Positions 4,558 through 21,741 of a stretch of 64,000 nt of DNA are shown one piece after another. Location of the stretch: NCBI GenBank assembly GCA_040752415.1, contig JBFMGU010000019.1, positions 1 through 64,000 on the forward strand, written 5' to 3'. The stretch comes from Myxococcota bacterium (GTDB taxonomy: Bacteria > Myxococcota > JACRCW01). The notes under the pieces are model-generated. The model worked only from the letters and a program-made list of their open reading frames with translations. It did not search any database and was not told the origin of the DNA. A program made the translations under genes and the position numbers. Every line of letters begins with the position of its first letter. Position 1 is the stretch's first letter.

Positions 4558-5950
4558 AGGTCTTCATGATGGTGGCGTGGGCCGCATCCGCCTTGGCGCG
4601 GTCCATGGCTTCCACCTGGTTTGAGGTTTCAAACTCGAAAACGTGGTGCTTGCCCTGGTTCTGCGCGAGCGCCTCCGCCAGGTCCTTCAGCGACGTGATT
4701 TCCCGCCCGTTGACGCGCCTGATCACGCCACCCACCGGCGCGCTCATCTGCGAGTTGACGGGGTGACGCAGCACGCGCGCCAGCACCACCACCTCGCGGT
4801 CCGCGGCCTCGGGCGTTTCCCATTCGCGGTAGATCTGGTGCCACAGCAGCTCACGCGGGGCGTTGGCGCGCCAGTCGCCGTAGGTCTTGAGCAGCTCCAC
4901 GTCCAGGGTCATGAACACCAGGCCGCCGTAGACGAGATAGCGCGGGGCCACGTCGAACTGGTTGCGGTGTCGCTCTCCGCGCGCCAGCCGACGGGAGACC
5001 ATGGTGACGTCCATCTCCTTGCCGTCGCGCAGGATGTGGAACCGCGCCGGTTGGCCCACCTGCTTGAGGTCCAGCGCATGACTCATGGGTACGCGCGCTT
5101 CACCCAGCGCGATGCTGCCGTCGTCGGCCACCGGCTGGCCTTCCACGGCGAGGATGACGTCGCCGCGCATCAGCACGCCGTCCGCGGAGCCACCGCGCAG
5201 CACATCATCCACGACGACACCCTGCTTGCCGGCGGGCACGCCACGCTCACGCTTGAGGGCGGGGGAGGTGAGCTCCTGGGTGCGCAGCCCGTCGTCGGGG
5301 AAGCCGTGGTAGGTGCCGTCCTTGATGTCGTCCAGGAAGTGCTGCACCACGGGCGCGGGGATGAAGAAGCCCACGTTGTCGTAGCCAGGGATGCCCTGGA
5401 ACGCGACGCCCACCACCTTCCCGTCCTGCACCACCGGCCCGCCGCTGTTGCCGGGATTGATGGCCGCGTCCGTCTGCACCACGAGATGCGCGTCCCAGCC
5501 GGTGTGCGCGTACGGCTTGAACTCCACGCGCGAGACGATGCCGCCGGTGGAGCTGACCTCCTCGCCGCCGAGGGGGAAGCCGTAGGTGGTGACCTTGCTC
5601 CGCGCCTTGGGAAGCGCGCCGAGCTTCAGAGGCTTCAGTCCCTTGTGGAACTCCGGGTCCTCGACCTTGAGCACGGCGAGGTCGCAGTCATGGCCAATGG
5701 CCTCCACCTTGGCGACGAACGGGTCGGCGAAGTGGTGGCGCTTGATGAGGATCTGGCGCGCGTCACGCACCACGTGCGCGTTGGTGACGATGAGCCCACC
5801 GTCGATGATGAAGCCGCTGCCCAGCCCGCTTTCGACGGGATGGACGCGCCAGGGAAGGGACCAGTCGGGACGTGCCCGGTAGACCTGGACACGGACCACG
5901 GCGTCCTCGGGGAGTGCCGTGGCGGCGAGGAGCAAGAGTGCGGTGATCAC
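4529..5950 (-). CDS. Trypsin-like serine protease with PDZ domains (HtrA/DegP, Deg2-like)
   Basis: GSGF, TNAHVV, DCDLAVL, AAINPGNSGGP catalytic motifs; PDZ domain; N-terminal signal peptide. Confidence 0.9.
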   Translation of the reverse strand: MITALLLLAATALPEDAVVRVQVYRARPDWSLPWRVHPVESGLGSGFIIDGGLIVTNAHVVRDARQILIKRHHFADPFVAKVEAIGHDCDLAVLKVEDPEFHKGLKPLKLGALPKARSKVTTYGFPLGGEEVSSTGGIVSRVEFKPYAHTGWDAHLVVQTDAAINPGNSGGPVVQDGKVVGVAFQGIPGYDNVGFFIPAPVVQHFLDDIKDGTYHGFPDDGLRTQELTSPALKRERGVPAGKQGVVVDDVLRGGSADGVLMRGDVILAVEGQPVADDGSIALGEARVPMSHALDLKQVGQPARFHILRDGKEMDVTMVSRRLARGERHRNQFDVAPRYLVYGGLVFMTLDVELLKTYGDWRANAPRELLWHQIYREWETPEAADREVVVLARVLRHPVNSQMSAPVGGVIRRVNGREITSLKDLAEALAQNQGKHHVFEFETSNQVEAMDRAKADAAHATIMKTYGIPRDRNL

Positions 5951-6035
5951 GAGCGGGACGATGCACCGGCGTGTGGGGGTGGGGCAACCGGATCGTCCTC
6001 GTCAAGGTGAGGGTGAAGGTCGGCGAACATCCAGG

Positions 6036-6086
6036 ACCGCCGCACTCCAGGTCGTGGCCCGCTCACGACGTCCGCAAAACCCGCTG
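6036..6086. repeat. Single arm of palindromic repeat family B
   Basis: CCGCCGCACTCCAGGTCGTGGCCCGCTCACG is shared with 29459-29489. Confidence 0.7.
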
Positions 6087-6108
6087 GGCGGCTGGGCCGT
6101 TCCGTCGT

Positions 6109-6373
6109 GGCGGGCGAACACCTAACCCCCCACGTTCATGCCGTTCTGCTCGCTCGCCCCCCTTCCCCACACCCGCTTCGCCGTCGTCAACCGTTGCGGG
6201 GAAGGGGGGCACGCACTGGGGTGGCCGAGAAGCGTTCTCTCGTCGGTAAGAGCGCGGCCGCGTTCACCGAGTGCCCCCCTTCCCCGGCTCGGTGACGACG
6301 GAAAATCGGGACTGGGGAAGGGGGGCGAGTGGACGCAGTATGACAAGCGTGGGGGGTTAGGTGTTCGCCCGCC
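6109..6373. repeat. ~265-bp nested palindromic element, family A copy 1 (MITE/REPIN-like)
   Basis: Perfect 26-bp terminal inverted repeats GGCGGGCGAACACCTAACCCCCCACG / CGTGGGGGGTTAGGTGTTCGCCCGCC with internal CCCCCCTTCCCC / GGGGAAGGGGGG pairs; second copy at 57519-57770. Confidence 0.85.
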
Positions 6374-6420
6374 CCGCCGTATGCGCCAATCCGTTGCCAC
6401 GCTGTGCGCCCCGCTCGCCG

Positions 6421-8022
6421 TCACCGCACCACCAACGACGCCAGCCTCGCCGCGTGCGGCGGTGTCACGCCGAGCAGCGCCGCCAGCGTGGGCGCTACGT
6501 GACGCATGTCCACCGGTCCCTCGGTGTACCCGCTGGGAATCCGGTAGCCGGGCGGCACCATCAGCACCAACGGAACGCGCTGGTCCGTCACCGACGTCGA
6601 CCCGTGGTCCGTCCCGGAAAGGTCGCTCTGCCCGTCGTGCCACACCCAAAGCGGGCGCACCTCGACGAGGATGTCGCCGCTGCGCTCGGGGTCGGCCACG
6701 TGATGGAACGGGAGCCACGTGGGACTCGCCATGGACGCCAGTCGACAATTCGCGACCGCACGACCCACACCCTCCACCTGCGCCGCCGCACGCGCGGCCC
6801 CCTCGAGGTGCTCGCAGCTCACCGGCTGACCAGCGGGACGCTCCAGCCACACGTGCGGCGGGCTGAAGAGCGTGACCCAGTCGCGCGGGCCTTCCGCGGT
6901 GTCCAGGTACGCATCCACCGCCTTCCCCACCGCCGCCATCTGCGCGCGTCCCGACGGAAGACGGTACTGCGCGGTGTCCTCGGGAATCGGCGTCACGCCG
7001 TGGTCGGAGGTGAGGATGATGGCCAGCTGGCCTGCCCCCACGCGCTTCTCCAGCCCGTCGACAAAAGCGCGCAGCGCGTTGTTCAGCCGCACCAGCGCAT
7101 CCACCCGCTCCGCGCTGTAGGGACCAAAGTTGTGACCAATCAGGTCAAACCCGCTCAGCATCACCCACAGCAGGTCCGGGTCCGCGCGTCGACCCAGGTC
7201 GAACTGCGCCACGGCGGCGTTGGCGAGCTCCAACGTCATCTCATCCATGCGCGGCGTGCTGCGGATGACCGTGCCCCAACTCGCCTTGGGAATGCGCGGC
7301 TCCTGGATGACCTTCGGGAAGCCGGTGCCCAGGCCCAGCCAGTCCTGCTCGCCGCGTGCGGGCTCCGGTCGCGCGTGGCGCGCCAGGATCTCCGACGACA
7401 CCAGCGGCTCCCAGCGGTACCCCCCAAGCGACGCCAGGCCATGGCTCGCGTTGAACCTGTCCACCCACGCCGGCGGCTTCTCCGCGTAGAATGACGACGA
7501 CACGTAACGCGCCTGGTCCGGGTCCCACCACAACGCGGCGTCGGCGGCGAAACCAGCGGTCAACACCGCGCTACGGTCCTTCCCACTCACCGCCACCACG
7601 CGCGCCCGCCCCGACGTGGCCACCTTCAGCTGGTCTCCCACCGTCGGAACGCGCAGCGGACGCGGGGAACGGCCGCGCCTGGGCTCCGGGGTGCCCCACG
7701 TCAGCGACTGCTGATCCTCGACGACGTACGAACGCCCCTTCGGCGTCCACACGTGGTTGGCCACGATGCCGTGCTCATTGGCATACGCGCCGGTGGAGAG
7801 CGTGGCGTGTCCCGGTCCCGTCTCCGTGTTGACGGTGTTGTAGCGCCCGTCGAGCAGCGTGCCGCGCGCCTGGATTCCCGCGACGCCACCCGGACCCAGC
7901 AGCTCCTGCATGCGCTGCAGATCCTCGTACCGGAGCTGGTCCACCACCAGCACCACCACGAGCGAGGGTTGCGGAGCCGCGGACGGCGCGACGAGCAGGG
8001 AGAGCGCGAGGAGGGCGTGCAT
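6421..8022 (-). CDS. Alkaline phosphatase family protein (PafA-like / nucleotide pyrophosphatase-phosphodiesterase)
   Basis: VVDQLR, TETGPGHATLSTG (Thr nucleophile), GKDRSA, DLIGHNFGP, TSDHG, DHGS metal-ligand motifs; signal peptide. Confidence 0.88.
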   Translation of the reverse strand: MHALLALSLLVAPSAAPQPSLVVVLVVDQLRYEDLQRMQELLGPGGVAGIQARGTLLDGRYNTVNTETGPGHATLSTGAYANEHGIVANHVWTPKGRSYVVEDQQSLTWGTPEPRRGRSPRPLRVPTVGDQLKVATSGRARVVAVSGKDRSAVLTAGFAADAALWWDPDQARYVSSSFYAEKPPAWVDRFNASHGLASLGGYRWEPLVSSEILARHARPEPARGEQDWLGLGTGFPKVIQEPRIPKASWGTVIRSTPRMDEMTLELANAAVAQFDLGRRADPDLLWVMLSGFDLIGHNFGPYSAERVDALVRLNNALRAFVDGLEKRVGAGQLAIILTSDHGVTPIPEDTAQYRLPSGRAQMAAVGKAVDAYLDTAEGPRDWVTLFSPPHVWLERPAGQPVSCEHLEGAARAAAQVEGVGRAVANCRLASMASPTWLPFHHVADPERSGDILVEVRPLWVWHDGQSDLSGTDHGSTSVTDQRVPLVLMVPPGYRIPSGYTEGPVDMRHVAPTLAALLGVTPPHAARLASLVVR

Positions 8023-8511: not shown

Positions 8512-9715
8512 GCAGCGTCCGCACCGCCAGCTCGCAGTACTTCTCGTCGACGACGCAGCTCACCTTGATCTCCGAGGTGCTGATCATCTGGATGTTGATG
8601 CCTTCCTTGGCCAGCAGCCGGAACATCTGCGCCGCCACACCCGCGTGGCTCCGCATGCCCGCGCCCACAATGGAGATCTTGGCCACCTTCTCGTCGCCCT
8701 CCACCGCCCGGGCGCCGATCTGCTTCGCCACCTCCTCGGTGATGCGCATGGCCTTCTTGTGATCCGTGCGCCCCACCGTGAAGGTCAGGTCGGTGTGCCC
8801 CGCCGCCGAAGCGTTCTGCACAATCACGTCGACGCTGATGTTCGCGTCGGCCAGCGCGGTGAAGATCTGCGCCGCCACGCCGGGCGCGTCGGGCACACTG
8901 CGAACCGCGATCTTGGCGTCGCCCTTGGAGTGGCTCACGCCCGTCACCAGCACCTTCTCCAGCATCTCTGCATCCTCCTGGCACACCAGGGTTCCATGGG
9001 GGTCGATTCCCGGACCGCTGAAGCTGCTCACCACGCGCAGCGGCACTTTGTATTGCAGCGCCAGCTCCACGCTCCGCAGCTGCAACACCTTGGCGCCCAG
9101 CGACGCCAGCTCCAGCATCTCCTCGTACGAAATGCGGTCGATCTTGCGCGCGGTGGAGCACACGTTGGGGTCCGCCGTGTAGACGCCGTCGACGTCGGTG
9201 TAGATGTCGCAGCGGTCCGCCTTCAGCGCCGCCGCCACCGCCACCGCCGAGGTGTCCGAGCCGCCCCGGCCCAGCGTGGTGATGTTGCCGTTCTCGTCGA
9301 CACCCTGGAACCCGGCCACCACCATGATCTCCCCGTCCTTGAGCCGACGACGGACCATCTCCTCGTCGATGCTCTTGATGCGGGCCTTGGTGAAGGCGGA
9401 GTCGGTGACCAGGCGGATCTGGCTGCCGGTGTAGCTGCTGGCGGGCACGCCCAGGTCGCGGATGGCCATGGCCACCAGCGCCGTGGAGACCTGCTCCCCC
9501 GTCGCCACCAGCGCGTCCAGCTCGCGCTCGTTGGGCTCCGGGCTCACCTCCTTGGCCAGCGCCAGCAGGCGGTTGGTCTCGCCACTCATGGCGCTCACCA
9601 CCACCACCACGTCGTTCCCGGCGCGACGCGTCTCCACGCACCGACGGGCCACGTTGCGGATGCGCTCCACGTTGCCCACGCTGGTGCCGCCGTATTTCTC
9701 CACTATCAAAGCCAT
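8477..9715 (-). CDS. lysC: Aspartate kinase
   Basis: [39 protein letters not shown], two ACT domains ending ISTSEIKVS. Confidence 0.96.
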
Positions 9716-9773: not shown

Positions 9774-11780
9774 TCAGGGGAAACGCGCCGTGGCGGTCTT
9801 TCCGCGCGCAACATCCAGCTTCACCATCCGGTCCTTGCCGCCGCGCTCCACCAGTCGCACCGTGTAGCTGCCCGGCGCGACCACCAGCGGCTTGTTGGGC
9901 ACGTCCCCCAGGCGCTTGCCGTTGAGGAACAGGGTCCCCGAGCGCCGCGCCACGACGGAGATGTAGCCCTCATTGGGCGCGCGGTTGTCCTGCGGGCGGG
10001 TGTCGTCGGGCTTGGGCGTCGTCGACACCGGGGTGGCCGCGGGGTCCCTGGCCGGCTTCCCCGACGAGGGGAGCGCGGGCAGCACCACCGCCACCTCGTT
10101 CCCCTCCACCGCGCTCACGCGCGTGGTGACGTCGCCATGGGGACAGCGCAGCACCACGGTGTGCGTCCCCGGCGTGATGTCCAGCCGACGCAGCGGCGCG
10201 CTCCCGTGGCTGGTGTTGTCCACGCGCACCTCACACGCGCTGTCCGCCGTCACCGAAAGGCGGGTGGGGGAGGGCGTGACCGTGGCCTGGCCGCGCTTCA
10301 CGCCTTCCTGCACGCCCAGGATCCACATGGTGGCCCCGCCCACCGCGCCCGACGCCACCGCCGTGGTCACCAGCGCCGCCACCGCCACCCGACGCGGGAC
10401 CTGCCAGCGGTTGCCCTTGATCATCGGGCCGGTCTGCGTGTTGAACGCGGCAGCCACGCTCGCCGCCTCGGGCGAGGACTCGTAGACCACCGGCGGCGGC
10501 AGCGGGGGCGAGGGAGGAACCGCGCGCCCGTCGGTGCCGGTGCGGAACACCCGCTCCAGCGCGCGACGATCCGTGGTGGTCAGCGGACTCTCCGACGACA
10601 ACATCGGCACCGGCGCGGGCGGCGGGACGGGGCGCATGCCCTCGTCGGTGGGAATCTCGCTGGTGCCCGGCACCGTCGGGGACGGGGGCTTGATGGCCTT
10701 GGGCGCGTCCGGCTCCAGGGAACGCGGCGTGGCCTCGCGCACCGTGTCGCGCTCCCCGTCGTCGGCGAGCAGCGAGGGTTGGTGACCCATGGCCTGGACG
10801 GGCTGCGTGGCCACCGCGCCCGCCGCCTTGCGCGCCCGCGCCGCGTCCTCCGCCATCTCCTCCGCCATCAGGTTGCTGATGAACTGGTCCATCTTCGTGG
10901 CCTGCGGCGAGATGGTCAGCGTCTGCAGGTACGCATCCAGCCGACGCTGCATGTCCCGCGCACTGGCAAAGCGGTGCTCCGGGTCCTTCTGCATGCACTG
11001 GATGATCACCTCCGCGAGGTCGTCGGGGAGGGAGGGGTTCAGCTCCTGGGGATGGGGGGCCTCGTCGTGGAGGATGGCGCGCGCCAGCGCTTCCGCGTTG
11101 GGAATGGGATAGGGGTGACGGCCGCAGCACAGCTCGTAGAGCACGACGCCACACGCGTAGATGTCCACGCGGTGATCCAGCGGCGCGCCCATGAGCTGCT
11201 CCGGCGCCATGTACGTCAGCTTGCCCTTGGCGCGACCATCCCGCGTGCGGTCCGTGCTCAGCGTGGCCTTGGCAATCCCGAAGTCCACCACCTTGGGCAC
11301 GCCGCTGTAGGTCACCATGATGTTCTCGGGCGAGATGTCACGGTGGATGATCTTCAGCGGCGCGCCGTCCTTGTCGGTCTGCGCGTGCGCGTGGTCCAGG
11401 CCCTCCAGCACCCCGCTGAGGATGCGCGCGGCGTGCTCCATGGGGATGCCAATGTGTTTCACCTCGCACTTCTTCATCACCGCCCGGAGCGTGCGCCCCA
11501 GGATGAACTCCATGGCGATGTAGAGGCGGCCCCCGTCCTCACCGAAGTCGAAGATCTGGACGATGTTGGGGTGGTTGAGCAGCGCGGCCAGGCGCGCCTC
11601 ATCCATGAACATGCGGCCAAAGCGGTCCTCGTCGACGCCGGCCCGGACCGTCTTGACCACGCAGCCCTTGGCAAAGCCGCCCGGCCCGCTGGCCCGCGCC
11701 AGCCAGACCTCCGCCATGCCGCCCACCCCGATGCGCTCCAGCAGCGTGTATTTGCCGAGCTGTTCCTTGTGCGCCGCCAT
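9774..11780 (-). CDS. Hanks-type Ser/Thr protein kinase with TM helix and C-terminal PEGA domains
   Basis: IGVGGMAEV, VVK, HRDISPENIMV, DFGIAK, YMAPE motifs; Pro-rich linker; TM helix; PEGA-like tail. Confidence 0.93.
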   Translation of the reverse strand: MAAHKEQLGKYTLLERIGVGGMAEVWLARASGPGGFAKGCVVKTVRAGVDEDRFGRMFMDEARLAALLNHPNIVQIFDFGEDGGRLYIAMEFILGRTLRAVMKKCEVKHIGIPMEHAARILSGVLEGLDHAHAQTDKDGAPLKIIHRDISPENIMVTYSGVPKVVDFGIAKATLSTDRTRDGRAKGKLTYMAPEQLMGAPLDHRVDIYACGVVLYELCCGRHPYPIPNAEALARAILHDEAPHPQELNPSLPDDLAEVIIQCMQKDPEHRFASARDMQRRLDAYLQTLTISPQATKMDQFISNLMAEEMAEDAARARKAAGAVATQPVQAMGHQPSLLADDGERDTVREATPRSLEPDAPKAIKPPSPTVPGTSEIPTDEGMRPVPPPAPVPMLSSESPLTTTDRRALERVFRTGTDGRAVPPSPPLPPPVVYESSPEAASVAAAFNTQTGPMIKGNRWQVPRRVAVAALVTTAVASGAVGGATMWILGVQEGVKRGQATVTPSPTRLSVTADSACEVRVDNTSHGSAPLRRLDITPGTHTVVLRCPHGDVTTRVSAVEGNEVAVVLPALPSSGKPARDPAATPVSTTPKPDDTRPQDNRAPNEGYISVVARRSGTLFLNGKRLGDVPNKPLVVAPGSYTVRLVERGGKDRMVKLDVARGKTATARFP

Positions 11781-11817
11781 CAGTTCCTGCCGTGGGGTGG
11801 GTCGACCATGCTGCCAG

Positions 11818-12201
11818 CTAGTACCGCCGGACGGAAGGGTCCACGGTGCGCGCCCAGAGGTCCGTCCCGCCGCGCAACGACCACGCGCTGCTGAAGCCCA
11901 GGCCGCGCAGCACCAGGGCGCCCTGCAGGCTGCGGATGCCGTGGTGGCAGACCACGACGGTCTCCACGGAGGCGGAGAGCTCCTCGGGGGCGCGCGCGGG
12001 GAGCTCCCGCAGCGGGATGTGCACCGCGCCGGGCATGGGCGCGAGCTGGACCTCCCAGTCCTCCCGCACGTCCACCAGGACCGGCGGCGAGGGCGAGCGG
12101 AGTCGCTCCGAGACGGCGGATGGGTCCAGCTCCAGGCCGGCGCGAGGGGGAATCACCCGGGGGTCTGTAGCGGGTCCGCGGACGCGCGGCCAACAGGTCA
12201 A
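11818..12201 (-). CDS. Rhodanese-like domain protein
   Basis: LVDVREDWE, GAVHIPL, active-site CHHGIRS, SLRGG; the true start may be slightly downstream. Confidence 0.85.
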   Translation of the reverse strand: MTCWPRVRGPATDPRVIPPRAGLELDPSAVSERLRSPSPPVLVDVREDWEVQLAPMPGAVHIPLRELPARAPEELSASVETVVVCHHGIRSLQGALVLRGLGFSSAWSLRGGTDLWARTVDPSVRRY

Positions 12202-12209
12202 GGTCCGGC

Positions 12210-12238
12210 TTGACAGCGGCGTGGGTGGGGGATAGCCA
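12210..12238 (+). promoter_or_regulatory. Possible sigma70 promoter for tRNA-Gly
   Basis: Perfect TTGACA at 12210-12215, a 17-bp spacer, then a weak -10 (TAGCCA) just upstream of the tRNA. Confidence 0.4.
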
Positions 12239-12249
12239 TCACGGCCCCG

Positions 12250-12326
<77 letters not shown>

Positions 12327-12329
12327 TCC

Positions 12330-12355
12330 AAGCCGCCGTAACTGGCGGCTTTTTT
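12330..12355 (+). terminator. Rho-independent terminator after tRNA-Gly
   Basis: AAGCCGCC-GTAACT-GGCGGCTT followed by a T run. Confidence 0.85.
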
Positions 12356-12829
12356 AATGCACCAGCTTCGACTTCTCGGTGGGGCTTCCCACTTTTCCGG
12401 GGCTTCCCCCCTTCTCTTCCCCACTTTTTTGGCAAGAGCGGCGCTTTGACCACCGACATGCCCCAAGGCGGCGTCGCCGGCACGAGCGCTCAGCGCGCGT
12501 TCTCGGCGCCGTGCCAAGTTGCAGCCTCTGCCCCCGTCCGGGCGCCTGAGAAGCGCAATGCGGTCGCATCCGTTACGTGCCGCAGGATGATCTCCAACGC
12601 CGGCTACTGGGAGCCCCCGACAGCTTTGGGGAAAGGCGCCTCGGGGGCGCATGGTCCCCCGGTCCCTGCGCACGCCTTGGAAGGCCGCAGAGCCGCTCAG
12701 AAGGTGCAGGGACCGATGCGGCTGCGGCACCGGGCGGTAGGCGGGCCGTTGACCCGACCGCTTGGCCGGCGTCATAACGTCAGCGATGACGTGACCAGCC
12801 GTGGAACAGGGTGGGTTGGGTCAGCGCAG

Positions 12830-13246
12830 ATGAGCGAACCCGGCGTAGCTTTCTTCGGTTTGGATCGTGCGGCCCTGGCCCGCCTTCGCGAGGGACGCGA
12901 GGTTCAGTTTGAAGTGAGCCCCGTGCTGGATGGCACCTTACTCGGAGCGCTGAGCTACGCTCAGAAGACACTCACCTGCATCGTGCTGTACGTTCGCGCT
13001 CCGGAAGGAACGGGGCTTTCCGTTTTCCGCGCGCTCGAGTTTGAGAGCGCGAGCCTGGCCCGAACGTTGGGCGGCACCAGCCTGCGCTACATTGCGCTGG
13101 CAGTGATCAATGACGCGCTGGGAAGAATCCTCCCCAAGAAAGGATTCGAGAGCACTGAAACTCCAATCCCGGACGTCTTGGGCGACAAGGGCAATGAAGC
13201 GGCGTTTGTGAAAACGGTCAGCGTTGGAAAGGAGGGTGCAAAATGA
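12830..13246 (+). CDS. Hypothetical protein (138 aa)
   Basis: ATG at 12830 in the 12266-13246 frame; globular composition; its stop overlaps the next start (ATGA) with GGAGG upstream. Confidence 0.5.
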   Translation: MSEPGVAFFGLDRAALARLREGREVQFEVSPVLDGTLLGALSYAQKTLTCIVLYVRAPEGTGLSVFRALEFESASLARTLGGTSLRYIALAVINDALGRILPKKGFESTETPIPDVLGDKGNEAAFVKTVSVGKEGAK

Positions 13247-14310
13247 TGCGCGACGCGACGACGTGGGCGAAGCTGAAAGCAGGTGGTGCGACGGCCGCCC
13301 AGTTGGCTGCCCGCTCGGCCGACGAGGGTGTCGATCTGTTCACCCGGGTCCGCCTCTTGCGCTCCACCTATGGGCTGAGTCTGGCTGAAGCGAAGCGGCT
13401 CGCCGCTCCGGATTCCGACGAGTCTGAAGGTCGCCTTGCCGCCGAGATTGCCTCGCACGACGACGGCGGGTTGACGATCGCCGATGAAGAGGTCGAGGCG
13501 CTAAAGCACTATCCCCCTTACGTCGTCCACGCGCTGCGCAATTGCGCGGGACGAGTGACCGCCGATCCGGAGTTCGTCTACACCGGGATCCGGCGTGACG
13601 GCCTTCTTAGGGATGGATTTGCCTTTTGCCGCAGGCTCGACTTTTCCGTCGACAACCACGGAGAGAAAACGCCTCCTCCGAAGGGGATGACCTTTGTCGT
13701 CTACGCTGCGGCAAGCGGTCACGTGTTTGATTGGGATTGGGTCCGCGCCGACAAGGCGGGCGCGCCTCTCGACGCGGAAAAGAGGTTCGCCGGTCCGGCG
13801 CCAAAGAAGTGTCGGATTCTCTCGGTGCCCCCTGCTGTGACCGTCGGCAGATTCAAGCCCCGTTGCGCGTCATACTCCAAGGTCGGTGATTGCATCTTTG
13901 CATACGTTTCCAACGAGCCGAGCTACGCTCAGCGCATCGACGACGACCTGACAGTTTTTGTCTCCCTCCGGCGGGATACGACGCTGACGGGATTGAAGCT
14001 GAAGAACGTGGAAAGAAACATCCTTGCCGTGACACAAGGCGATGTGAAAGCCGTGGAGAACACCGGCGTGGAGGTCAGGGCTGCGAAGGGCGCAAAGACC
14101 ATCACGATCGGCCTTCGTGTGTTGGTGGACTACTCCCGGGTCAAACAGGAGATGCGCTCACGTCTTCTGCCGGACCTGACGGACTTTGAGCCAGACCCGT
14201 ACCTTCGCGTGCTCAGGGCACTTGAGAGGCGGAAGCTCGATCCGGCGATTCCAATCCCCGAAGCCTTCGTGCTCGATCACATTCAGCGCGAGCGCAGCGC
14301 CGAGGGATGA
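13243..14310 (+). CDS. Hypothetical multi-domain protein (small helical N-terminal domain, central alpha/beta domain, DUF2283-like segment)
   Basis: RBS GGAGG, translational coupling to the upstream ORF, protein-like composition; domain resemblances by eye only. Confidence 0.65.
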   Translation: MMRDATTWAKLKAGGATAAQLAARSADEGVDLFTRVRLLRSTYGLSLAEAKRLAAPDSDESEGRLAAEIASHDDGGLTIADEEVEALKHYPPYVVHALRNCAGRVTADPEFVYTGIRRDGLLRDGFAFCRRLDFSVDNHGEKTPPPKGMTFVVYAAASGHVFDWDWVRADKAGAPLDAEKRFAGPAPKKCRILSVPPAVTVGRFKPRCASYSKVGDCIFAYVSNEPSYAQRIDDDLTVFVSLRRDTTLTGLKLKNVERNILAVTQGDVKAVENTGVEVRAAKGAKTITIGLRVLVDYSRVKQEMRSRLLPDLTDFEPDPYLRVLRALERRKLDPAIPIPEAFVLDHIQRERSAEG

Positions 14311-14339
14311 CGAATGACAACGGCGTCCGCGATCCCCAT

Positions 14340-15277
14340 TCGAACGCCGTACAGTGGGCCATATTTTCGCCGTGTACTCCGGTGCGCCCGCACTCACTCC
14401 CAGGCAGCGCTGGCGTCGTCAAAAGGAACTCCCGGATCTCGGCGATGAGCTTCCGCGATCGCTGATCCCGCCGCTTCGCCAGCTCCTCGGCAGGACCATC
14501 CTTCTCGACGCAGAACAGCTGCCCCACCTGATGCAGAATCCGCTTAGCTTAGCTTGCTCGGGAAATGCCGTCTCGATGTCGATGAAGTGTCGCCGGACGT
14601 GTGTCCAGCAGTGCGCCAGGTTCATCCCCGGCCGGGACTTCGCCAGCGACGTGTACACGCCGTAGCTGTCCACCATCCACACGCCGTCGGGCGACTGCAG
14701 CATCTCGACTGCCTCCTCCGCGCTCCGGCCGTCCTTGATGCTGTGGTGCACCGCCTGCTCCGTCGCCACGCACCACATCGTCCAGTTCTTTCGTCTCCGC
14801 GCCGAACACCGGCCGGCGCGTCTCATCCGCGCAGCGCACCTTCTGCGACGGGGTGAACTCCACCAACCGCTGCTCGACGGGAAGGAGCGCCTTGGACAGC
14901 GTATTCCTGGTCCCACAGCGTCTGGGAGCCCCCTTCAGCCACTTCGCGCGCCAGTATGCGCACCTGGCGCTGCAGCGGGATGTGCTCGAGGAACTTCCGC
15001 GCCACCACCCCCTGCAGGGGGCAACGCGCACCGCGACAGAGCCGACATCATCAACGACGCGGACCTTGCGGAACGCGGAAGTCGCCTTTCGCCAACGGTC
15101 CAGCGTGGGCACCGGGATGCCAAGCTCGGCGCAGGCCGCGGCCTTGGTCATGTCGGAAGCGACGGCGCGTGTGACGAGGGCGACTGCCTCTTGGCGCATG
15201 GTACGCGGAAATCGGCGTCGGTGTGCGGGCCCGAGGGCCACGGCCTGCGCCCGCCAATCTACGAGGTTCTGGTTCAT
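14340..15277 (-). mobile_element. Degenerate IS66-family element (TnpA-like HTH plus TnpC transposase fragments)
   Basis: Fragments in different frames: HTH (AACAELGIPVPTLDRWR), ADET, VDSYGVY...HCWTHVRRHF, and RDQRSRKLIAEIREFL...LPGS, all IS66-like; frameshifted and deleted. Confidence 0.75.
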
Positions 15278-15520
15278 GGTTTCCTCTGCCTGCGGAGGAA
15301 ATCTGCGCCGCGCGCGTCACGCCGCGGTGGCGCGCCGAGGAGTGACGCGGGGCCCCTGGCGGGGACCTCCTGTGCTGGCATTACCGCGACGCCGGAGCGT
15401 GCTTCGTCGGAACCCCAGACCTGAGTGTGCTTGCACATCCTCAGGCCCGGTTTGACGTCCCCGGTGCGCTAAGACCGGGCCTGCATTGCGCCGCCCCGCG
15501 TCTCGAAGGATCGTTGTCGC

Positions 15521-18500
15521 GTGTCCGCCTCCGAATGCCCCTTCTGCTCCGTCTCCGACAGTGACTGCGTCCTCCGGTCCGCCGCGGTGTTCGCAGTGCG
15601 AGATCGGTACCCCGTATCTCGCGGCCACACGCTGGTGATTCCTCACCGACATGTCACGACCTATTTCGACGCCGACAGCGAACTGCGTGAAGAACTCTGG
15701 CGGGCTGTAGACGTCGTCAAACGCCAACTTGACCAGGCGGTGCATCCCGACGGTTACAACATCGGGTTCAACGCGGGCGTCGCCGCCGGTCAGACGGTGA
15801 TGCACCTCCACATCCACGTCATTCCTCGCTACCGCGGGGACATGGACGACCCGCGGGGCGGTGTCCGCGGTGTGATCCCGGGAAAGCAGAAGTACGGTGG
15901 TGCGCGGCCATTCGAGGGCCTGCCGGCGTTTGTTCCGGGGCAGGACAAACCGCTATTAGGCGTGCTTCGCCAGGCGCTGCAGGCAGCCTCGCAAGCTGAC
16001 ATGGTCGCCGCTTTCGTCCAGCCCTCCGGACTACAGGCTCTCTACCCCGACGTCGTGGATGCACTTCGCCGTGGCGCCCAAATCCGGCTTCTCACGGGCG
16101 ACTACATGGGCACCACCAGCGCTGACGCTCTGCGCCGCCTCCTGGAACTGTCGGAGCAGCAGGCCGGGTTCAAGCCCTACCTGTTCGAGGTCAGCGCGGG
16201 AGAGTCGTTCCATCCCAAGGCCTACGTCTTCCGTAGCGGAGAACAAGGCGTCGCTTACGTCGGCAGCAGCAACCTTTCCCGCCAAGCCCTTGAGGAAGGC
16301 ATCGAGTGGAACCTTCGACTGGTGTCGTCGGACGACAAGGAAGCGTTCTCCTCCATCTGCCAGCGTTTTGACGAGCTCATCAGCTCCCCAGCCTGCAAGC
16401 CGCTGTCCAAGAGACTCATCGACGCGTACGAGGCCCGGGCACCTGTGCCGTTGATGCATGCGCCAGAGGTCCGCGCCGCGCCGTTCATCCCCCACGCCAT
16501 CCAAGTTGAGGCGTTGGCAGCGCTGAAGCGAACGCGCGCCGAGGACAAGCGGAGGGGCCTCGTGGTTCTTGCGACGGGCCTGGGCAAGACACTCTTGTCC
16601 GCGTTCGACTTCAAGGCACTGGGCGGGGAGCGCGCGCTCTTCATCGCGCATCGCGAAGAGATTCTGGAGCAGGCGCGCGAGCGCTGGGCGGCCGTCATGC
16701 CAGAGAAGGTGTGCGGCATCCTCGGCGTTGGCCGTGATGAGCGCGACGCGGACATCATCTTCGCGTCGGTTCAGACCATCGCCAGAAGCCAGCGCCTCAT
16801 GCAGTTCGCGTCGGAACACTTTGACTATGTCGTCGTGGACGAGTTCCATCGTGCTGCTGCGTCGACCTATCGACGCGTGATGACCCACTTCCGCCCGAGG
16901 TTCATGCTGGGGCTTACCGCCACGCCGGACCGCCTGGATGGTCGCTCGCTGTTGGAGCTATGCGACGACAATCTGGTGTTCCGGCAGGACATCGTCCACG
17001 GCATCTCCAGGCGTCTGTTGGTTCCGTTCTCTTACTTCGGCGTGAAGGACGCCGCCGACTTCGCGCCGATTCCTTGGCGAAACGGGAAGTTTGACACCGA
17101 GGCCCTGACCTCCGCCGTTGCGACACGCGACCGAGCGGACCAGGCGTTGCGCGAGTACCAAAGCCACGCACCCGCGAAGCCGCGCCGGACGCTCGTCTTC
17201 TGCTGCAGCACGCGACACGCGGATTACATGGCGAAGTTCTTCACCGAGAACGGCCACCCCGCCGCATCCGTCCACAGCGAGCCCTCGTCCGCGCCGCGCG
17301 CGGAGTCTCTGCGTAAGTTGCGGGACGGCAGCCTGGAGATCATCTGCGCAGTGGATGTCTTCAATGAAGGTCTCGACGTCCCGGAAATCAACACGGTCTT
17401 GATGCTTCGTCCCACCCAGTCGCCGGTGATCTTCCTCCAGCAACTCGGGCGTGGTCTCCGAACCGCCGATGGGAAGGAGCGCCTTGTCATCGTCGACTTC
17501 ATCGGAAATCACCGCAGCTTCATGCAGAAGCCGCAGGCGTTGGCGTACCTCAGTGGTCGTGACCTGCCTGCGGCGGCCGCGGTGCGCGCGCTGGCCAAGA
17601 GGGAGCTGCCGCTGCCTGAGGGGTGTAGCATCGACATCGAGACCGCCGCGATCGACATGCTGCGGGAGATGGCCAAGGGCTCCAGGGAGGACATCCTCCT
17701 CTACGAGTACATGTCATTCCGCGACTCTCATGGGCGACGCCCCACGGCGCGGGAGCTGTTCGACGCCGGTGTTAGCCTCAAGCCCGTCATGGAAGGGTAC
17801 GCGACCTGGTTTGACTTCGTACGGCATCAAGGGGACGCCACCGGCGACGAGCTACGGGTCTTGGGACGTCACGCCGGGTGGTTCGGTGATCTCCAGCGCA
17901 CCAGCATGACGAAGGCGTACAAGATGCTCGCTTTGCAGGGTCTGCTGAACGAGGGCGCGCTGTTCAGCGGAACGACGGTCGAGGCCAACGCCCGCGCCGC
18001 CGAGGCACTCGCGCGGGACAATCTGCTGCTGTTCCGCGAGCTTCGCGAGGACGAGAAGCGACGTGTGATGGGTAGTGAATTCATCCGCCAGTGGCGCAGC
18101 ATGCCGCTTCAAGTGTGGGCTCGCGGTGAATCGACCTCGAGGTCATGGTTTGAACTCAAGGATGACCGTTTCGTTCCAACGTACGTCGTCGATGAAGCTG
18201 ACCGGCCAGTCTTCGTCGAGATGACCGAGGAAGTCGTCGAGTATCGCCTGGCCCAGCACGTGGACAAGCTTAGGCGTGGCGCGACGCTGGATGCGGGACA
18301 GGCACCCATCGTCATGAAGGTTTCCCACACGGGTGGCAAGCCAATCCTGCGATTTGACCGGAAGGCCAGGCCGGATGTGCCGCAGGGAGAAGTCCGCGTC
18401 GACGTGGAAGGCGAGGATTACCGTTTCCAGTTCAAGCAAATCGCGGTCAACGTGGTGTGGCCACTGCACAAGGAACAGAACCTGTTGCCGCAACTGATGC

Positions 18501-19498
18501 GTGGCTGGTTTGGCCCCACGGCAGGCAATCCAGGGACCCGTCATTTCGTGGAGCTGATTCAGAGCGAAGCGGGCTGGAAGTTGCGGCCGCAGGCCACGGG
18601 GCAGGGGCAAACGCGTGAAGCCGACGTGCTCGCGTTTCCTCGGTTACCGTTTTACCCGGACTTTCAAGTCGCCTGCGGCGCTTTCGCGGAGAGCGACCGG
18701 ATGGCCCAGGCTGTGGGTGAGCTGTCAGTCGTGACCAGCAGGGACATTTCGCCATCACGGAACTTCGTGGTCCGCGCCTCCGGGGACTCCATGGATGGAG
18801 GGACCAGTCCCATTCGCGATGGCGACATGGTGCTCTGCGAGTGGTGGTCAGGGGGCGCGCCCGACGAGGTCATCGGCAAGCCGTTCTTGTTGGTCGGCCA
18901 GGACGGCGCAGACACGACGATTGCGGCGATCAAGGTGCCGCGAAAGCGCCCCGGCGGCTGGGTTCTGGAGAGTTGGAATCCTGCCTATCCACCCCTTGAG
19001 TTGCCCGCAGACGGTCGCGTCGAGCCCATGGCTCGTGTGCTCGAAGTCGTCCAGGAGCGCCAGGCACTCACTCTGTGGGGCCAGTACGAACGCGAGCAGA
19101 TCGCGCCCGCATTTGGTGGAAGAGCTGACGCGTCGTGGAGCGTCGGCGTGCGCGACGTGACCGTCGATGGCAATCCGCACACGATCCTGCTGGTGACGTT
19201 GCGGAAGGAGGAACAGACCGATCCCGACCAACGGTACACAGACCGCTTCATCACCCCTTCTAGGTTTCTGTGGTCCTCCCAAGCGAAGACTTCGCCAGAC
19301 GACGCCAAAGGCAAGCGCATCATCCGACACGAGGCGGAAGGCCGGCGGATACACCTCTTCGCGCGGCCCCATAAGCGCTCGCCCTTCGTCTATTGCGGCG
19401 AAGTGACGTACCTCAACCACACGGGCTCCGAACCCATGGCCGTGGAGTTCTCGCTCAGCCATCCGCTTCCCGACGGCCTCTGGCGTGTTTGGCAGTAG
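15521..19498 (+). CDS. HIT-PLD nuclease-SF2 (DEAD/DEAH) helicase-S24 peptidase-like-DUF3427 fusion; SauUSI-like type IV restriction candidate
   Basis: CPFC plus HLHIHVIPR (HIT); FHPKAY...YVGSSNLS (PLD); LATGLGKT, DEFHR, GLTATPDR, QQLGRGLR (SF2); RASGDSMD...IKV...LESWNP (S24-like); FLWSSQ...IHLFAR...FVYCG...PMAVEFSL (DUF3427-like). Confidence 0.85.
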   Translation: MSASECPFCSVSDSDCVLRSAAVFAVRDRYPVSRGHTLVIPHRHVTTYFDADSELREELWRAVDVVKRQLDQAVHPDGYNIGFNAGVAAGQTVMHLHIHVIPRYRGDMDDPRGGVRGVIPGKQKYGGARPFEGLPAFVPGQDKPLLGVLRQALQAASQADMVAAFVQPSGLQALYPDVVDALRRGAQIRLLTGDYMGTTSADALRRLLELSEQQAGFKPYLFEVSAGESFHPKAYVFRSGEQGVAYVGSSNLSRQALEEGIEWNLRLVSSDDKEAFSSICQRFDELISSPACKPLSKRLIDAYEARAPVPLMHAPEVRAAPFIPHAIQVEALAALKRTRAEDKRRGLVVLATGLGKTLLSAFDFKALGGERALFIAHREEILEQARERWAAVMPEKVCGILGVGRDERDADIIFASVQTIARSQRLMQFASEHFDYVVVDEFHRAAASTYRRVMTHFRPRFMLGLTATPDRLDGRSLLELCDDNLVFRQDIVHGISRRLLVPFSYFGVKDAADFAPIPWRNGKFDTEALTSAVATRDRADQALREYQSHAPAKPRRTLVFCCSTRHADYMAKFFTENGHPAASVHSEPSSAPRAESLRKLRDGSLEIICAVDVFNEGLDVPEINTVLMLRPTQSPVIFLQQLGRGLRTADGKERLVIVDFIGNHRSFMQKPQALAYLSGRDLPAAAAVRALAKRELPLPEGCSIDIETAAIDMLREMAKGSREDILLYEYMSFRDSHGRRPTARELFDAGVSLKPVMEGYATWFDFVRHQGDATGDELRVLGRHAGWFGDLQRTSMTKAYKMLALQGLLNEGALFSGTTVEANARAAEALARDNLLLFRELREDEKRRVMGSEFIRQWRSMPLQVWARGESTSRSWFELKDDRFVPTYVVDEADRPVFVEMTEEVVEYRLAQHVDKLRRGATLDAGQAPIVMKVSHTGGKPILRFDRKARPDVPQGEVRVDVEGEDYRFQFKQIAVNVVWPLHKEQNLLPQLMRGWFGPTAGNPGTRHFVELIQSEAGWKLRPQATGQGQTREADVLAFPRLPFYPDFQVACGAFAESDRMAQAVGELSVVTSRDISPSRNFVVRASGDSMDGGTSPIRDGDMVLCEWWSGGAPDEVIGKPFLLVGQDGADTTIAAIKVPRKRPGGWVLESWNPAYPPLELPADGRVEPMARVLEVVQERQALTLWGQYEREQIAPAFGGRADASWSVGVRDVTVDGNPHTILLVTLRKEEQTDPDQRYTDRFITPSRFLWSSQAKTSPDDAKGKRIIRHEAEGRRIHLFARPHKRSPFVYCGEVTYLNHTGSEPMAVEFSLSHPLPDGLWRVWQ

Positions 19499-19809
19499 CT
19501 GCGTGCGTGTCTAAGTTCCGGACACCCCGGTGACGACGTCATCAGTCTGAATTTCAGTCACCCTCCGCAGCGACACATCTGACGTGCGCACCCGCCCGTC
19601 ATGCACGTATCCCCGCCTCCAACTGCCCCCCGTGACGACGACAAACCGGCGCTGATCCCCAGACGCAACAGTCTCCACAACCTCCGGGCCCTCCGCCTTG
19701 GAACACCGGCTGCAATCACCTCCCTCACACGGACGCGGCGGGTTGGCGCATGCACCGCACAAACCCGCTCCGCGTCCCCAACGACGTGACATCCCGTCCG
19801 GAGGTTCGC

Positions 19810-20345
19810 ATGGCTGTTGCAGCCAACCAGATTCACCACCGCACCGTGGCGGCCTTTCGCGCGGCGCAAGTCAACCCGCAGATCGCCAAGTACATGCAGC
19901 CGGAACTGAAGGAGAAGCTGGACAACCTGGCCCGTCGCCTCATCCCGCTCCTCGCGGCCGCCGACGACGAGGGCGCGGTCAAGCAGGTGCTCAACGAGTG
20001 CGAGCAGGCGTACATCCAGACCCGTGAAGTCCTGGGGCGCGTCCAGGCCGGCGTGCGGCTCATCTACACCAAGCACCAGGGCGTCATGGCGCGCCTGGAG
20101 CCGCTGCGGCTTGGGGCGGACCCCACGGAGGACGCCATCCACTCACCCACCTCCGACAGGAGATCCCGCAGCTTGCCCGCCCCGCGTTCATGTGGCCCGA
20201 GGACCTGAACCTGGACATCATCGACGCCACCCTCTCCGCGCACCACGCCGCCGAGGAACGGCACGAGGGCGTGATCAAGGCCGTGCGGGGCGCCGCCCAG
20301 GAGCCGCGGGACCTGCGACCCGAGGCCGCCCGGCTCTGGGACAGG
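19810..20345 (+). pseudogene. Frameshifted hypothetical helical protein
   Basis: RBS GGAGG plus ATG at 19810 and host-like codon usage; the protein-like reading shifts frame near 20140-20190 (…PEDLNLDIIDATLSAHH…). Confidence 0.4.
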
Positions 20346-20352
20346 CCTGAAG

Positions 20353-21144
20353 GTGCTGAAGTCGCGCATCCGGCGCGCGGGAATTCCGTCGTCACGGATT
20401 GATGAGAGCATCCTGTTGGCCACCTGGAACGTGCGGGAGCTGGGGAAGAGTCCGCGAGGGAAGGCGTCGTTGCACTACATCGCGGAGATCGTCGGGCAGT
20501 TTGACCTGGTGGCGCTGGTGGAGGTCCGCGACAACCTCGCCGACCTGCGCGAGACCCTCGGGTACCTGGGTCCGGCCTGGGACGTGGTCTACTCCGACTT
20601 TGTCACCGACGACGGCGGGAACCACGAGCGCGTGGCCCACGTCTACGACAAGCGCGCCGTGGTCTTCACGGGGCTGGCGTCGGTGGCGGAACCGCGTCGC
20701 GTGAAGCGCAAGAACGGGGAGTACCTGCCCACCACGGCGTGGTGGCGGCGACCGTCCATGGCGTCGTTCCGGTCGGGGAGCTTCGACTTCGTGCTGCTGA
20801 CGTTGCACAGCCGCTGGGGCACCACGACGGGCCGCGCGGCCGAGCTGGAGCGGATTGCGGCCTGGGTCCACGAACGTCGCAACGAGCGACACGTGGAGGA
20901 CAAGGACATCATCGTGCTGGGGGACTTCAACATCCCCGGGCTGCGCAGCCCCCTGTACAAGGCGGTCACCCGACGGGGACTCCAGGTTCCGACGGCGCTG
21001 CTGGGTATCCGCGGGAGCAACCTGGCGCGGGATACACGCCATGACCAGACCCTGCACGACCCCGTGTTCACGCGGAGCTTCGGGGCGCGGGGTGGGGTGC
21101 TGGATTTCCACGTCGGCGCGCACCGCGTGCTGTATCCCGGGTGA
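20353..21144 (+). pseudogene. Endonuclease/exonuclease/phosphatase (EEP) family protein, probably truncated
   Basis: LATWNVRE, DLVALVEV, ERVAHVYD, IIVLGDFNIP motifs; the terminal SDH-P catalytic motif is absent and the ORF stops just before repeat family D. Confidence 0.65.
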
Positions 21145-21156
21145 GGATGAGCAAGC

Positions 21157-21741
21157 GATTCGGCGCGCTGGAGAACCGGCCTGCAATGTAGGGGCTGCCC
21201 GTTGCCGGTAACGCGTGAACGGTGAAGGTGGCCGGCAATGGTCAGCCCCGGGCCGCGCTGTCATGACGACGGAGAACGCCCAGCGCCGCCATGGACCGCG
21301 TCATTCAACGCGACGGAGAAGGGACCAGCAATGCAGGGGCTGCCCGTTGCCGCTAACGCGTGAACGGTGGAAGTGGCCGGCAATGGTCAGCCCCGGGCCG
21401 CGCTGTCACCACGAAGGAAAACGGCCCGCAGCGAGGAACGGATGGCCGCTGGCATTGAAGAAGTGGTCCGAAGCGTCCGAGCGCGGAAGCGAGTTGTGGG
21501 TGAATCGCCCGTGGCGACCCGTACGCGGGAAAACTGTGGGGCCGGTGGCGTGGTCGACCGTATTCCGTCGTCATGACAGCGCGGCCCCGGGGCTGACCAT
21601 TGCCGGCCACTTTCACCGTTCACGCGTTACCGGCCACGGGCAGCCCCTACATTGCAGCCCGGTTCTCCAGCGCGCTGAATCGGTCGGTCCGGTCGCATCG
21701 CGTGCCGTTTTCCGTCGTCATGACGGCGCGGCCCCGGGGCT
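21157..21741. repeat. Cluster of ~100-120-bp repeats (family D): two direct copies, one inverted copy and one partial copy
   Basis: GGGGCTGCCCGTTGCCG..TAACGCGTGAACGGTG..AGTGGCCGGCAATGGTCAGCCCCGGGCCGCGCTGTCA at ~21157-21273 and ~21329-21423; reverse complement at 21565-21681; partial at 21707-21741. Confidence 0.85.

Follow-up and report, generated by a model that had tools for sequence, protein, structure and literature searches.

A conserved SauUSI-like restriction protein with an N-terminal HIT domain and a predicted LexA-type self-cleavage unit

Introduction

What do a HIT domain and an S24 peptidase-like domain do in one polypeptide with the nuclease, motor and reader of a putative restriction enzyme? 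This question is raised by a single gene of a Myxococcota bacterium (assembly GCA_040752415.1), which occupies the frame 15521..19498 on the forward strand of contig JBFMGU010000019.1. The window that was analyzed is the stretch of 64,000 nucleotides from position 1 to position 64,000 of this contig. The frame begins with a GTG start codon, is free of internal stop codons and encodes 1325 amino acids. A preliminary description, made from the letters of the window, had presented the protein as a SauUSI-like anti-phage enzyme with HIT, PLD, superfamily 2 (SF2) helicase, S24 and DUF3427 parts in a single chain. All of these parts were recovered by Pfam, and the description was correct at every point that could be checked.

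The reading that we favor, with a probability of roughly 0.6, is that of a single-chain, ATP-dependent and modification-dependent (type IV) enzyme of the SauUSI family, in which self-cleavage triggered by RecA on single-stranded DNA would uncouple the reader and in which the HIT domain would be an active phosphohydrolase. The main interest lies in the embedded self-cleavage unit and in the alternation of the HIT domain with a methyltransferase-like partner among the relatives of the enzyme.

Results

Nuclease, motor, coupler and reader resemble those of SauUSI

Pfam assigned HIT to residues 12-105 (E 1.1e-23), PLDc_2 to residues 153-285 (E 8.3e-11; RE_NgoFVII E 2.9e-4), ResIII to residues 325-471 (E 6.9e-36), Helicase_C to residues 552-648 (E 3.9e-16), Peptidase_S24 to residues 1049-1173 (E 1.3e-7, 31.8 bits against a cut-off of 23.3) and DUF3427 to residues 1179-1322 (E 5.5e-21). 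The last match is confined to profile positions 123-277 of 280, so that the protein has as such only the second half of DUF3427, a point missed in the preliminary description. The proposed kinship with SauUSI of Staphylococcus aureus was borne out by three comparisons: the SauUSI structure (PDB 7clg) aligned over residues 140-674 (E 1.2e-92), the family profile matched SauUSI at E 5e-155 with an alignment as far as chain residue 672, and PADLOC assigned the protein to the type IV methyl-directed restriction enzymes (mREase_IV, E 1.8e-124). The nuclease domain with its single HxK aligns to the SauUSI nuclease, and the SF2 ATPase contains the motifs Walker A GxGKT (353-357), DEFH (440-443), TATP (466-469) and QQxGRGxR (640-647). 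For the SRA part, a weak alignment of residues 1180-1299 to SauUSI chain residues 800-918 was obtained (17.8 bits).

The region between motor and S24 domain (residues 675-1045) matched no Pfam family, even at E 10. Structure models were made of residues 675-1325, with a mean predicted local distance difference test score (pLDDT) of 85.4, and of residues 725-1035 (pLDDT 93.6), and were subjected to fold searches. The best match of residues 725-918, at the top of the list, was SauUSI 622-798 (Z 8.4, root-mean-square deviation 2.5, 100 residues aligned); generic winged helices matched at Z 6-7.8. The motif TSMTKAYKMLAL, which had been listed as a further domain, falls at about residues 793-804 in the winged-helix part of this SauUSI-like coupler. 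Residues 1179-1319 matched the SRA domains of SUVH5 (Z 10.2), AspBHI (Z 9.7) and LpnPI (Z 9.4), in agreement with the DUF3427/SRA-like C-terminus proposed earlier. In the SauUSI study, residues 618-805 are described as coupler and residues 806-953 as SRA reader (PMC7913695). Exactly at this coupler/reader junction, the present protein contains an insertion of about 260 residues that comprises a B3-like barrel, overlooked in the preliminary description, and the S24 domain. The barrel (residues 924-1027) was matched to the B3 domains of R.NgoAVII (Z 7.1, 95 residues aligned), FUS3 (Z 6.5) and RAV1 (Z 6.0).

To follow conservation, the protein was aligned with 46 of its 119 listed relatives (47 sequences in total), chosen to be full-length and to span the identity range, with fragments left out. 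SauUSI pocket residues were mapped onto this alignment via the sequence alignment to 7clg. The stacking tryptophan W868 of SauUSI corresponds to W1251 (47/47), and the base-contacting aspartate D858 to D1241 (Asp in 39, Glu in 7 and Asn in 1 of the 47 sequences). A base-flipping pocket is probably kept.

Taken together, the protein shares with SauUSI (PDB 7CLG; PMC7913695, PMC3141236) a single-HxK PLD nuclease, an SF2 DExH-type ATPase, a helical coupler and a C-terminal SRA-fold reader in the same order, as well as the lack of a partner DNA methyltransferase nearby. It differs from SauUSI by being 372 residues longer, with a HIT domain at its N-terminus and the B3-like and S24 insertion between coupler and SRA, and the similarity is weak outside nuclease and motor. 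The combination of a PLD nuclease with a B3-like pseudobarrel is also found in BfiI and R.NgoAVII; however, these are sequence-specific type II or ATP-dependent systems with methyltransferases, and the B3 assignment in the present protein is tentative.

The S24 domain has the layout of a LexA/UmuD-type self-cleavage unit

The S24 domain contains the sequences VACG (1050-1053), GDSM (1088-1091) and AAIKV (with K1138) in the arrangement of LexA and UmuD. Its Cys-Gly pair is located 38 residues ahead of Ser1090. In LexA, UmuD and cI, the Ala/Cys-Gly scissile bond lies about 35-38 residues ahead of the serine. In fold searches, residues 1041-1184 matched the LexA C-domain (Z 12.9), LexA of T. maritima (Z 12.7), lambda cI (Z 11.8) and UmuD' (Z 10.9), and Foldseek gave a probability of 1.0 for the domain. 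Alignment to LexA 75-204 and lambda cI 98-229 placed the Cys-Gly within 1-2 residues of their Ala-Gly scissile bonds, and a sequence alignment with UmuD spans both GDSM and the lysine. The site is preceded by a flexible hinge (residues 1028-1045) with a mean identity of 0.24 and low pLDDT. Thus, the S24-like domain named in the preliminary description is present; nothing had been drawn from it there, although the module is, as judged from these residues, a complete LexA/UmuD-type self-cleavage unit and as such the most unusual feature of the protein.

The protein is not a LexA repressor, as enzyme domains and not an N-terminal helix-turn-helix precede the S24 domain. It shares with LexA, UmuD and lambda cI the fold, the Ser-Lys dyad, the Ala/Cys-Gly site with equal spacing and structural position and the flexible hinge in front of it. 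In contrast to these proteins, the module is here part of a 1325-residue enzyme instead of a helix-turn-helix repressor or a polymerase subunit, and it is followed by an SRA domain; its dependence on RecA is a proposal. The host genome contains two RecA genes and one LexA-like gene. Every feature of the SauUSI family and of S24 self-cleaving domains that can be computed was found in this protein.

Among the enzyme genes of 80 related loci, S24 was detected in 24 of 78, all with GxSM and either ACG or AAG, and in one adjacent piece in locus L017. Pfam confirmed S24 in six further C-terminal tails that had been overlooked by the first profile. The cassette of B3 and S24 was found in 544 representative clusters at E<=1e-3, in 307 at E<=1e-10 and in 47 at E<=1e-30 (of 1.84 billion representatives).

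The fused architecture is conserved

The preliminary description had considered that the HIT fusion might be unique to this genome and the product of an accidental read-through. A homologue search in 5.8 billion clustered proteins gave 4449 matches among 8000 scored candidates. According to precomputed labels, HIT, S24 and DUF3427 occur together in 80 of the 120 best matches, the query's own protein included. Members of this set mostly comprise about 1310-1410 residues, are 41-61% identical to the query and originate from Myxococcota, Planctomycetota, Actinomycetota and metagenomes. With the fusion conserved in these proteins and in the 47 aligned sequences, a read-through accident is ruled out.

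Residues H95, H231, K233, K356, D440, E441, A1051, C1052, S1090, K1138 and W1251 are conserved in 47/47 aligned sequences and H97, H99 and G1053 in 46/47; no variation was seen in Walker A, DEFH, TATP and QQxGRGxR. The modules differ in mean identity to the query, with 0.63 for the ATPase, 0.56 for HIT, 0.47 for PLD and 0.44 for both S24 and SRA, which makes HIT the second most conserved module. The S24 label under-counts the domain, because it is absent in 12 of the 47 sequences that still keep the S24 residues.

The distribution of the gene is patchy. A full-length gene was found in only 1 of 40 sampled relatives (genome G027, 56% identity), and the sole genome of the same family among these relatives gave a helicase match only. 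Two loci contain a HIT domain and the start of a PLD domain with in-frame TAG stops (L099, G031:C159:244-708, minus strand; L100, G002:C12:16284-16805, plus strand; 46-48% identity); these short matches are probably what is left of decayed genes of this kind. In locus L098 (G035:C20), a stand-alone HIT gene (9302-9706, minus strand) that is 60% identical to the query HIT adjoins gpsA; next to it lies a gene of 390 amino acids (10762-11931, minus strand) with weak HIT-like and nucleoside deoxyribosyltransferase-like matches, and no PLD-helicase was present within 9 kb. None of 135 matching plasmid records and none of 1915 matching phage records covered 80% of the protein. A second SauUSI-like gene was not found in the host's own genome, the next best match being a helicase frame of 581 amino acids with 31% identity. 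In the literature that was searched, which did not include most subscription journals, neither this architecture nor a HIT or S24 domain in SauUSI-like enzymes was described. The HIT-SauUSI-S24 design is therefore conserved but apparently undescribed.

HIT alternates with a methyltransferase-like partner

The HIT motif HLHIHVI is located at residues 95-101. Among solved structures, the domain came closest to HIT proteins of bacteria and archaea, Ap4A phosphorylase and FHIT (E 1e-17 to 1e-24), followed by Hint (about 1e-10), and the matches to NCBIfam models were all far below their cut-offs. In addition, the PADLOC model of ThsC matched the HIT domain (E 8e-13). ThsC is described as a HIT protein that accompanies 2.4% of Thoeris systems and whose role is only hypothesised (PMC8565338). 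ThsC of some Thoeris systems is a candidate precedent for HIT in defence, and the only one found. Both cases have a HIT-family protein as optional accessory of an anti-phage system; they differ in that PADLOC models, including those of ThsA and ThsB, matched none of the seven open reading frames flanking the present gene.

To see how HIT is distributed over the wider family, module profiles were run over 80 related loci, each taken from a different species, that encode a SauUSI-like paralogue with this type of coupler. HIT was fused N-terminally to the enzyme in 13 loci and encoded by an adjacent open reading frame in 13 more, of which L016 and L040 look like frameshifted fusions. These counts support the functional link between HIT and the enzyme family that had been suspected for the single protein. 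A gene for a class I S-adenosylmethionine (SAM)-methyltransferase-like protein of about 200 amino acids was detected in 42 loci, in 39 of them within 124 nt and mostly on the same strand. Both partners were present in a single locus (L025, where the methyltransferase is distant and weak), which is also contained in the counts of fused HIT and of methyltransferases, and neither in 13 loci, five of which are truncated at the end of a contig. HIT and the methyltransferase-like gene are near-exclusive alternative partners (26 versus 42 loci). The methyltransferase-like partner resembles TehB, BchM and UbiG-type enzymes and not DNA methyltransferases, and its only label in the Protein Atlas is 'class I SAM-dependent methyltransferase'.

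For the ATPase domains (83 rows), a maximum-likelihood tree was calculated in a quick run, a more careful search being unfinished. In this tree, the fused-HIT enzymes all fell into one group of 20 rows (support of 86 in the Shimodaira-Hasegawa-like approximate likelihood ratio test, SH-aLRT), which is sister to a methyltransferase-type gammaproteobacterial group (joint support 99). In a Bacillota clade, loci with adjacent HIT were interspersed with methyltransferase-type loci, and at least four changes are required by well-supported branches. Nine loci (L012, L013, L014, L023, L025, L030, L043, L050 and L067) contain a second, ordinary SauUSI-like gene with PLD, ATPase and DUF3427. These second genes form a clade of their own (support 97), and the coupler-type enzyme beside them often lacks the SRA reader. 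The pair in these nine loci may represent a two-enzyme system, of which the present protein would be the fused, self-sufficient form.

Because its catalytic residues are intact and it also occurs as a separate neighboring gene, HIT is expected to do chemistry rather than scaffolding, and we infer that it is an active nucleotide-processing accessory. The preliminary description had suggested that nucleotides such as phage-modified precursors of deoxynucleoside triphosphate type or signaling nucleotides are sensed or degraded. In L004, a gene directly upstream of the enzyme (5979-6968, plus strand) encodes a NUDIX domain (PADLOC candidate PDC-S07, E 5.6e-49) fused to the methyltransferase-like partner, and in L067 a MutT/NudG-like NUDIX gene (6462-6875, plus strand) is the immediate upstream neighbor of the second SauUSI-like gene. 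A NUDIX gene in the equivalent place of one relative fits loosely with the suggested role, an idea that gives no account of the far commoner methyltransferase-like partner.

Genomic context

The coordinates of the domains and of the upstream features are collected in Table 1. The tRNA upstream of the gene and the insertion sequence debris beside it were both confirmed. G+C content is 0.62-0.65 over the gene and 0.67-0.74 in its flanks, and an att-like direct repeat of the 3' end of the tRNA-Gly gene was absent from 12150-21300.

Table 1. Coordinates of the enzyme's domains and of features upstream of its gene
Feature	Position	Strand	Basis and remarks
tRNA-Gly(CCC)	12251-12326	+	ARAGORN; 3.2 kb upstream of the gene
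IS66-family transposase fragment	14419-14916	-	DDE_Tnp_IS66, E 8.5e-17, profile positions 85-168 of 284
Likely ribosome-binding site GAAGGA	15506..15511	+	9 nt upstream of GTG; from sequence reading alone
HIT domain with full His triad H95-x-H97-x-H99	15533..15895	+	residues ~5-125; Pfam and conservation
PLD-family nuclease with single HxK (H231, K233)	15953..16420	+	residues ~145-300; Pfam and SauUSI alignment
SF2 helicase-like ATPase	16487..17560	+	residues ~323-680; Pfam and motifs
Coupler with helical and winged-helix-like subdomains, contains TSMTKAYKMLAL	17561..18274	+	residues ~681-918; structural match
B3-like pseudobarrel (tentative)	18290..18601	+	residues ~924-1027; fold search
S24 (LexA/UmuD-type) peptidase, Ser1090 in G-D-S-M and Lys1138	18656..19054	+	residues ~1046-1178
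Predicted self-cleavage site Ala1051-Cys1052-Gly1053 (scissile Cys-Gly)	18671..18679	+	conservation and structural alignment
SRA-like reader (C-terminal half of DUF3427) and stop codon	19055..19498	+	residues 1179-1325

In line with the preliminary description, no DNA methyltransferase was detected nearby: PF00145, PF01555 and PF02384 gave no match on the contig of the window, and Pfam and PADLOC scans of the flanking open reading frames detected no DNA methyltransferase. The three families do match elsewhere in the 11-Mb genome. The small methyltransferase-like partner of related loci is not present in the window. At least two C5-cytosine methyltransferase-like loci were found in the host genome (contigs C62 and C46, with frames of 464 and 820 amino acids); therefore, self-targeting is a real risk for an enzyme that may read modified cytosine.

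Two open reading frames near the gene, 13243-14310 and 19750-20208 (both on the plus strand), have a coding-like codon-position G+C, belong to no Pfam or PADLOC family and have no counterpart beside related enzymes; the former is located between the tRNA and the IS66 debris, where G+C is low. An endonuclease/exonuclease/phosphatase-family gene (20353-21144, plus strand; Pfam E 1.6e-10), located 0.85 kb downstream of the enzyme, gave no match in PADLOC and was not found beside related enzymes. Further downstream, an open frame of 8560 codons (29560-55242, minus strand) encodes a huge cysteine-rich repeat protein. Its first 3000 residues contain only DUF4215 repeats (E 9.3e-74), which rule out a non-ribosomal peptide synthetase or polyketide synthase.

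In Mycolicibacter, the orthologue (locus L002) is flanked by a gene for an SMC-type ATPase (4213-6672, minus strand) that matches the models of Lamassu LmuB and MADS mad3, and by genes for a GIY-YIG nuclease and a transposase fragment (10846-11385, plus strand, and 11428-11796, minus strand, respectively). This neighborhood looks like a defence island.

Discussion

From the domain set, the conserved catalytic residues, the point of insertion and the conserved architecture we infer the following activities, trigger and direction of the switch. The C-terminal SRA-like domain would flip out and recognise a modified base; from homology with SauUSI, a derivative of cytosine is the likeliest candidate. 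Recognition would be passed via the helical and winged-helix coupler to the SF2 ATPase, upon which the enzyme would translocate on DNA, and two PLD domains, contributing one HxK each, would pair and cut the DNA. Ser1090 and Lys1138 would cut the protein itself between Cys1052 and Gly1053, yielding a 1052-residue body of HIT, nuclease and motor and a 273-residue reader piece of S24 and SRA. The likeliest trigger would be RecA on single-stranded DNA, i.e. DNA damage, and the likeliest outcome would be that reading is uncoupled from cutting, as a built-in 'restriction alleviation' switch that limits harm to the cell's own DNA. The HIT phosphohydrolase would work beside the nuclease, its substrate being a nucleotide that is either free or linked to DNA.

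An off-switch is favored because the scissile bond is located between coupler and reader. In SauUSI, the ATPase is activated via the coupler when the SRA domain recognises its target (PMC7913695). A cut between coupler and SRA should therefore break the activation link in the present protein. A comparable logic is found elsewhere: in type I restriction alleviation, ClpXP degrades HsdR after DNA damage. In both cases proteolysis would turn off a translocating restriction enzyme when it threatens the DNA of the cell itself. This likeness is a functional analogy only, as type I alleviation depends on an external protease, whereas in our proposal the protease is built into the enzyme and acts on itself.

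A bolder version of this proposal can be put forward only tentatively and we would sooner expect it to fail than to hold. It states that the enzyme carries its own DNA-damage fuse, in which a RecA-driven self-cut detaches the reader, and that HIT or the SAM-methyltransferase-like protein serves as an interchangeable partner that processes a small molecule and that such enzymes require.

Several observations weigh against the favored reading. Activity and the modified base that is recognised are assigned by homology to SauUSI only, and within the pocket Y831 of SauUSI, the proposed methyl contact, is replaced by Val, Ile or Leu, and M829 corresponds to a variable column. The B3-like assignment of residues ~924-1027 is tentative with Z scores of 6-7, as the fold-search tool rates values below 8 as middling. 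A gammaproteobacterial subgroup has Arg in the column of the S24 catalytic Lys (L004-L007, L013, L014, L017, L026 and L037); Ser and ACG are kept in these copies, except for L017 with ACS, and their cleavage may be different or absent. Most relatives end with S24 and have no SRA behind it, and therefore the logic of uncoupling a reader does not apply to them as stated. Cleavage might also be mere maturation, with the pieces staying together after the cut. LexA-like proteins that cleave without RecA exist (PMC7101444), so the trigger could be other than RecA. The alternation of HIT with a SAM-methyltransferase-like gene fits no simple story of nucleotide hydrolysis, and no neighbor gene is common to the window and the loci L001, L002, L004, L008, L023 and L089.

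The main and serious rival to an off-switch is activation by self-cleavage, although we consider it improbable. Here, an S24 or S24-SRA tail would inhibit the nuclease and motor of the same enzyme, and RecA filaments on intermediates of phage replication or recombination would trigger self-cleavage and set the nuclease free, as licensing or as abortive infection. UmuD, whose cleaved form UmuD' matched the module at Z 10.9, is activated by a similar cleavage. Moreover, with S24 in terminal position in most relatives, its removal is more readily imagined to free the enzyme from an inhibitor, and several HIT-S24 relatives that lack the SRA reader need another sensor of infection. However, cleavage inactivates LexA and phage repressors, the scissile bond of the present protein separates the coupler from the very reader that activates the ATPase in SauUSI, and a nuclease that any DNA damage could release would endanger a cell whose SOS response is normal.

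It is rather less probable still that S24 and HIT do no chemistry and are dimerisation or scaffold domains which keep a pair of single-HxK PLD domains in contact. HIT proteins and LexA C-domains do dimerise. SauUSI needs a nuclease dimer, but it dimerises without HIT or S24 (PMC7913695). A scaffold would also have no need of the Ser, Lys, A-C-G and His triad that are kept in 46-47 of 47 sequences although the domains are just 44-56% identical, and in the 13 loci in which HIT is a separate neighboring gene it cannot act as a clamp within the chain.

An SOS-linked DNA repair factor that is not part of defence, in which helicase and SRA would find lesions and blocked ends would be processed, appears very unlikely. 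Aprataxin, a HIT protein, removes 5'-AMP, and Tdp1 of the PLD superfamily removes 3' adducts. The combination of HIT, PLD, helicase and a LexA-like module is in line with such a role, as is a weak resemblance of the helicase to RadD (E 9.8e-35, 120 bits against a cut-off of 720). Yet PLD and motor are specifically SauUSI-like, and the neighbors of one orthologue are a Lamassu-like SMC ATPase, a GIY-YIG nuclease and a transposase. Genes for repair usually belong to the core that is inherited vertically, whereas the present gene is patchily distributed (1 of 40 relatives) and lies in a low-G+C stretch with insertion sequence debris.

Least probable of all is that phosphorothioate DNA is targeted, with the winged helix serving as sulfur-binding domain as in ScoMcrA and HIT or the TehB-like methyltransferase detoxifying nucleoside phosphorothioates: HIT enzymes can desulfurise these compounds, ScoMcrA also pairs a sulfur-binding domain with SRA, the partner methyltransferase resembles TehB-type enzymes and the sulfur-binding domains of Hga, SprMcrA and ScoMcrA match the winged helix at Z 7.1, 6.6 and 6.1 (109-116 residues aligned), but the SauUSI coupler is the better match (Z 8.4) and generic winged helices are no worse (Z up to 7.8), no sulfur-binding domain or ScoMcrA was named among the best 60 of 253 structure matches of the family profile, and similarity to PbeA and Dnd-type restriction enzymes is limited to helicase motifs.

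In the usual view, restriction enzymes are always-on nucleases that are made safe by methylation or by the choice of their target. The presence, in a widespread family, of a conserved LexA-type unit exactly between the target reader and the motor-nuclease suggests that restriction can be under direct post-translational control by DNA damage. If this is true, the SOS signal would switch innate immunity at the level of the protein, with no need for a separate protease or regulator, which would bear on how autoimmunity is avoided when bacteria gain new methyltransferases and on the ways in which phages might set off the switch or turn it to their advantage. That the family is regularly paired with HIT or a SAM-methyltransferase-like protein suggests that type IV restriction involves accessory chemistry so far unrecognised and, should the two partners indeed be interchangeable, would imply an unknown nucleotide step in restriction.

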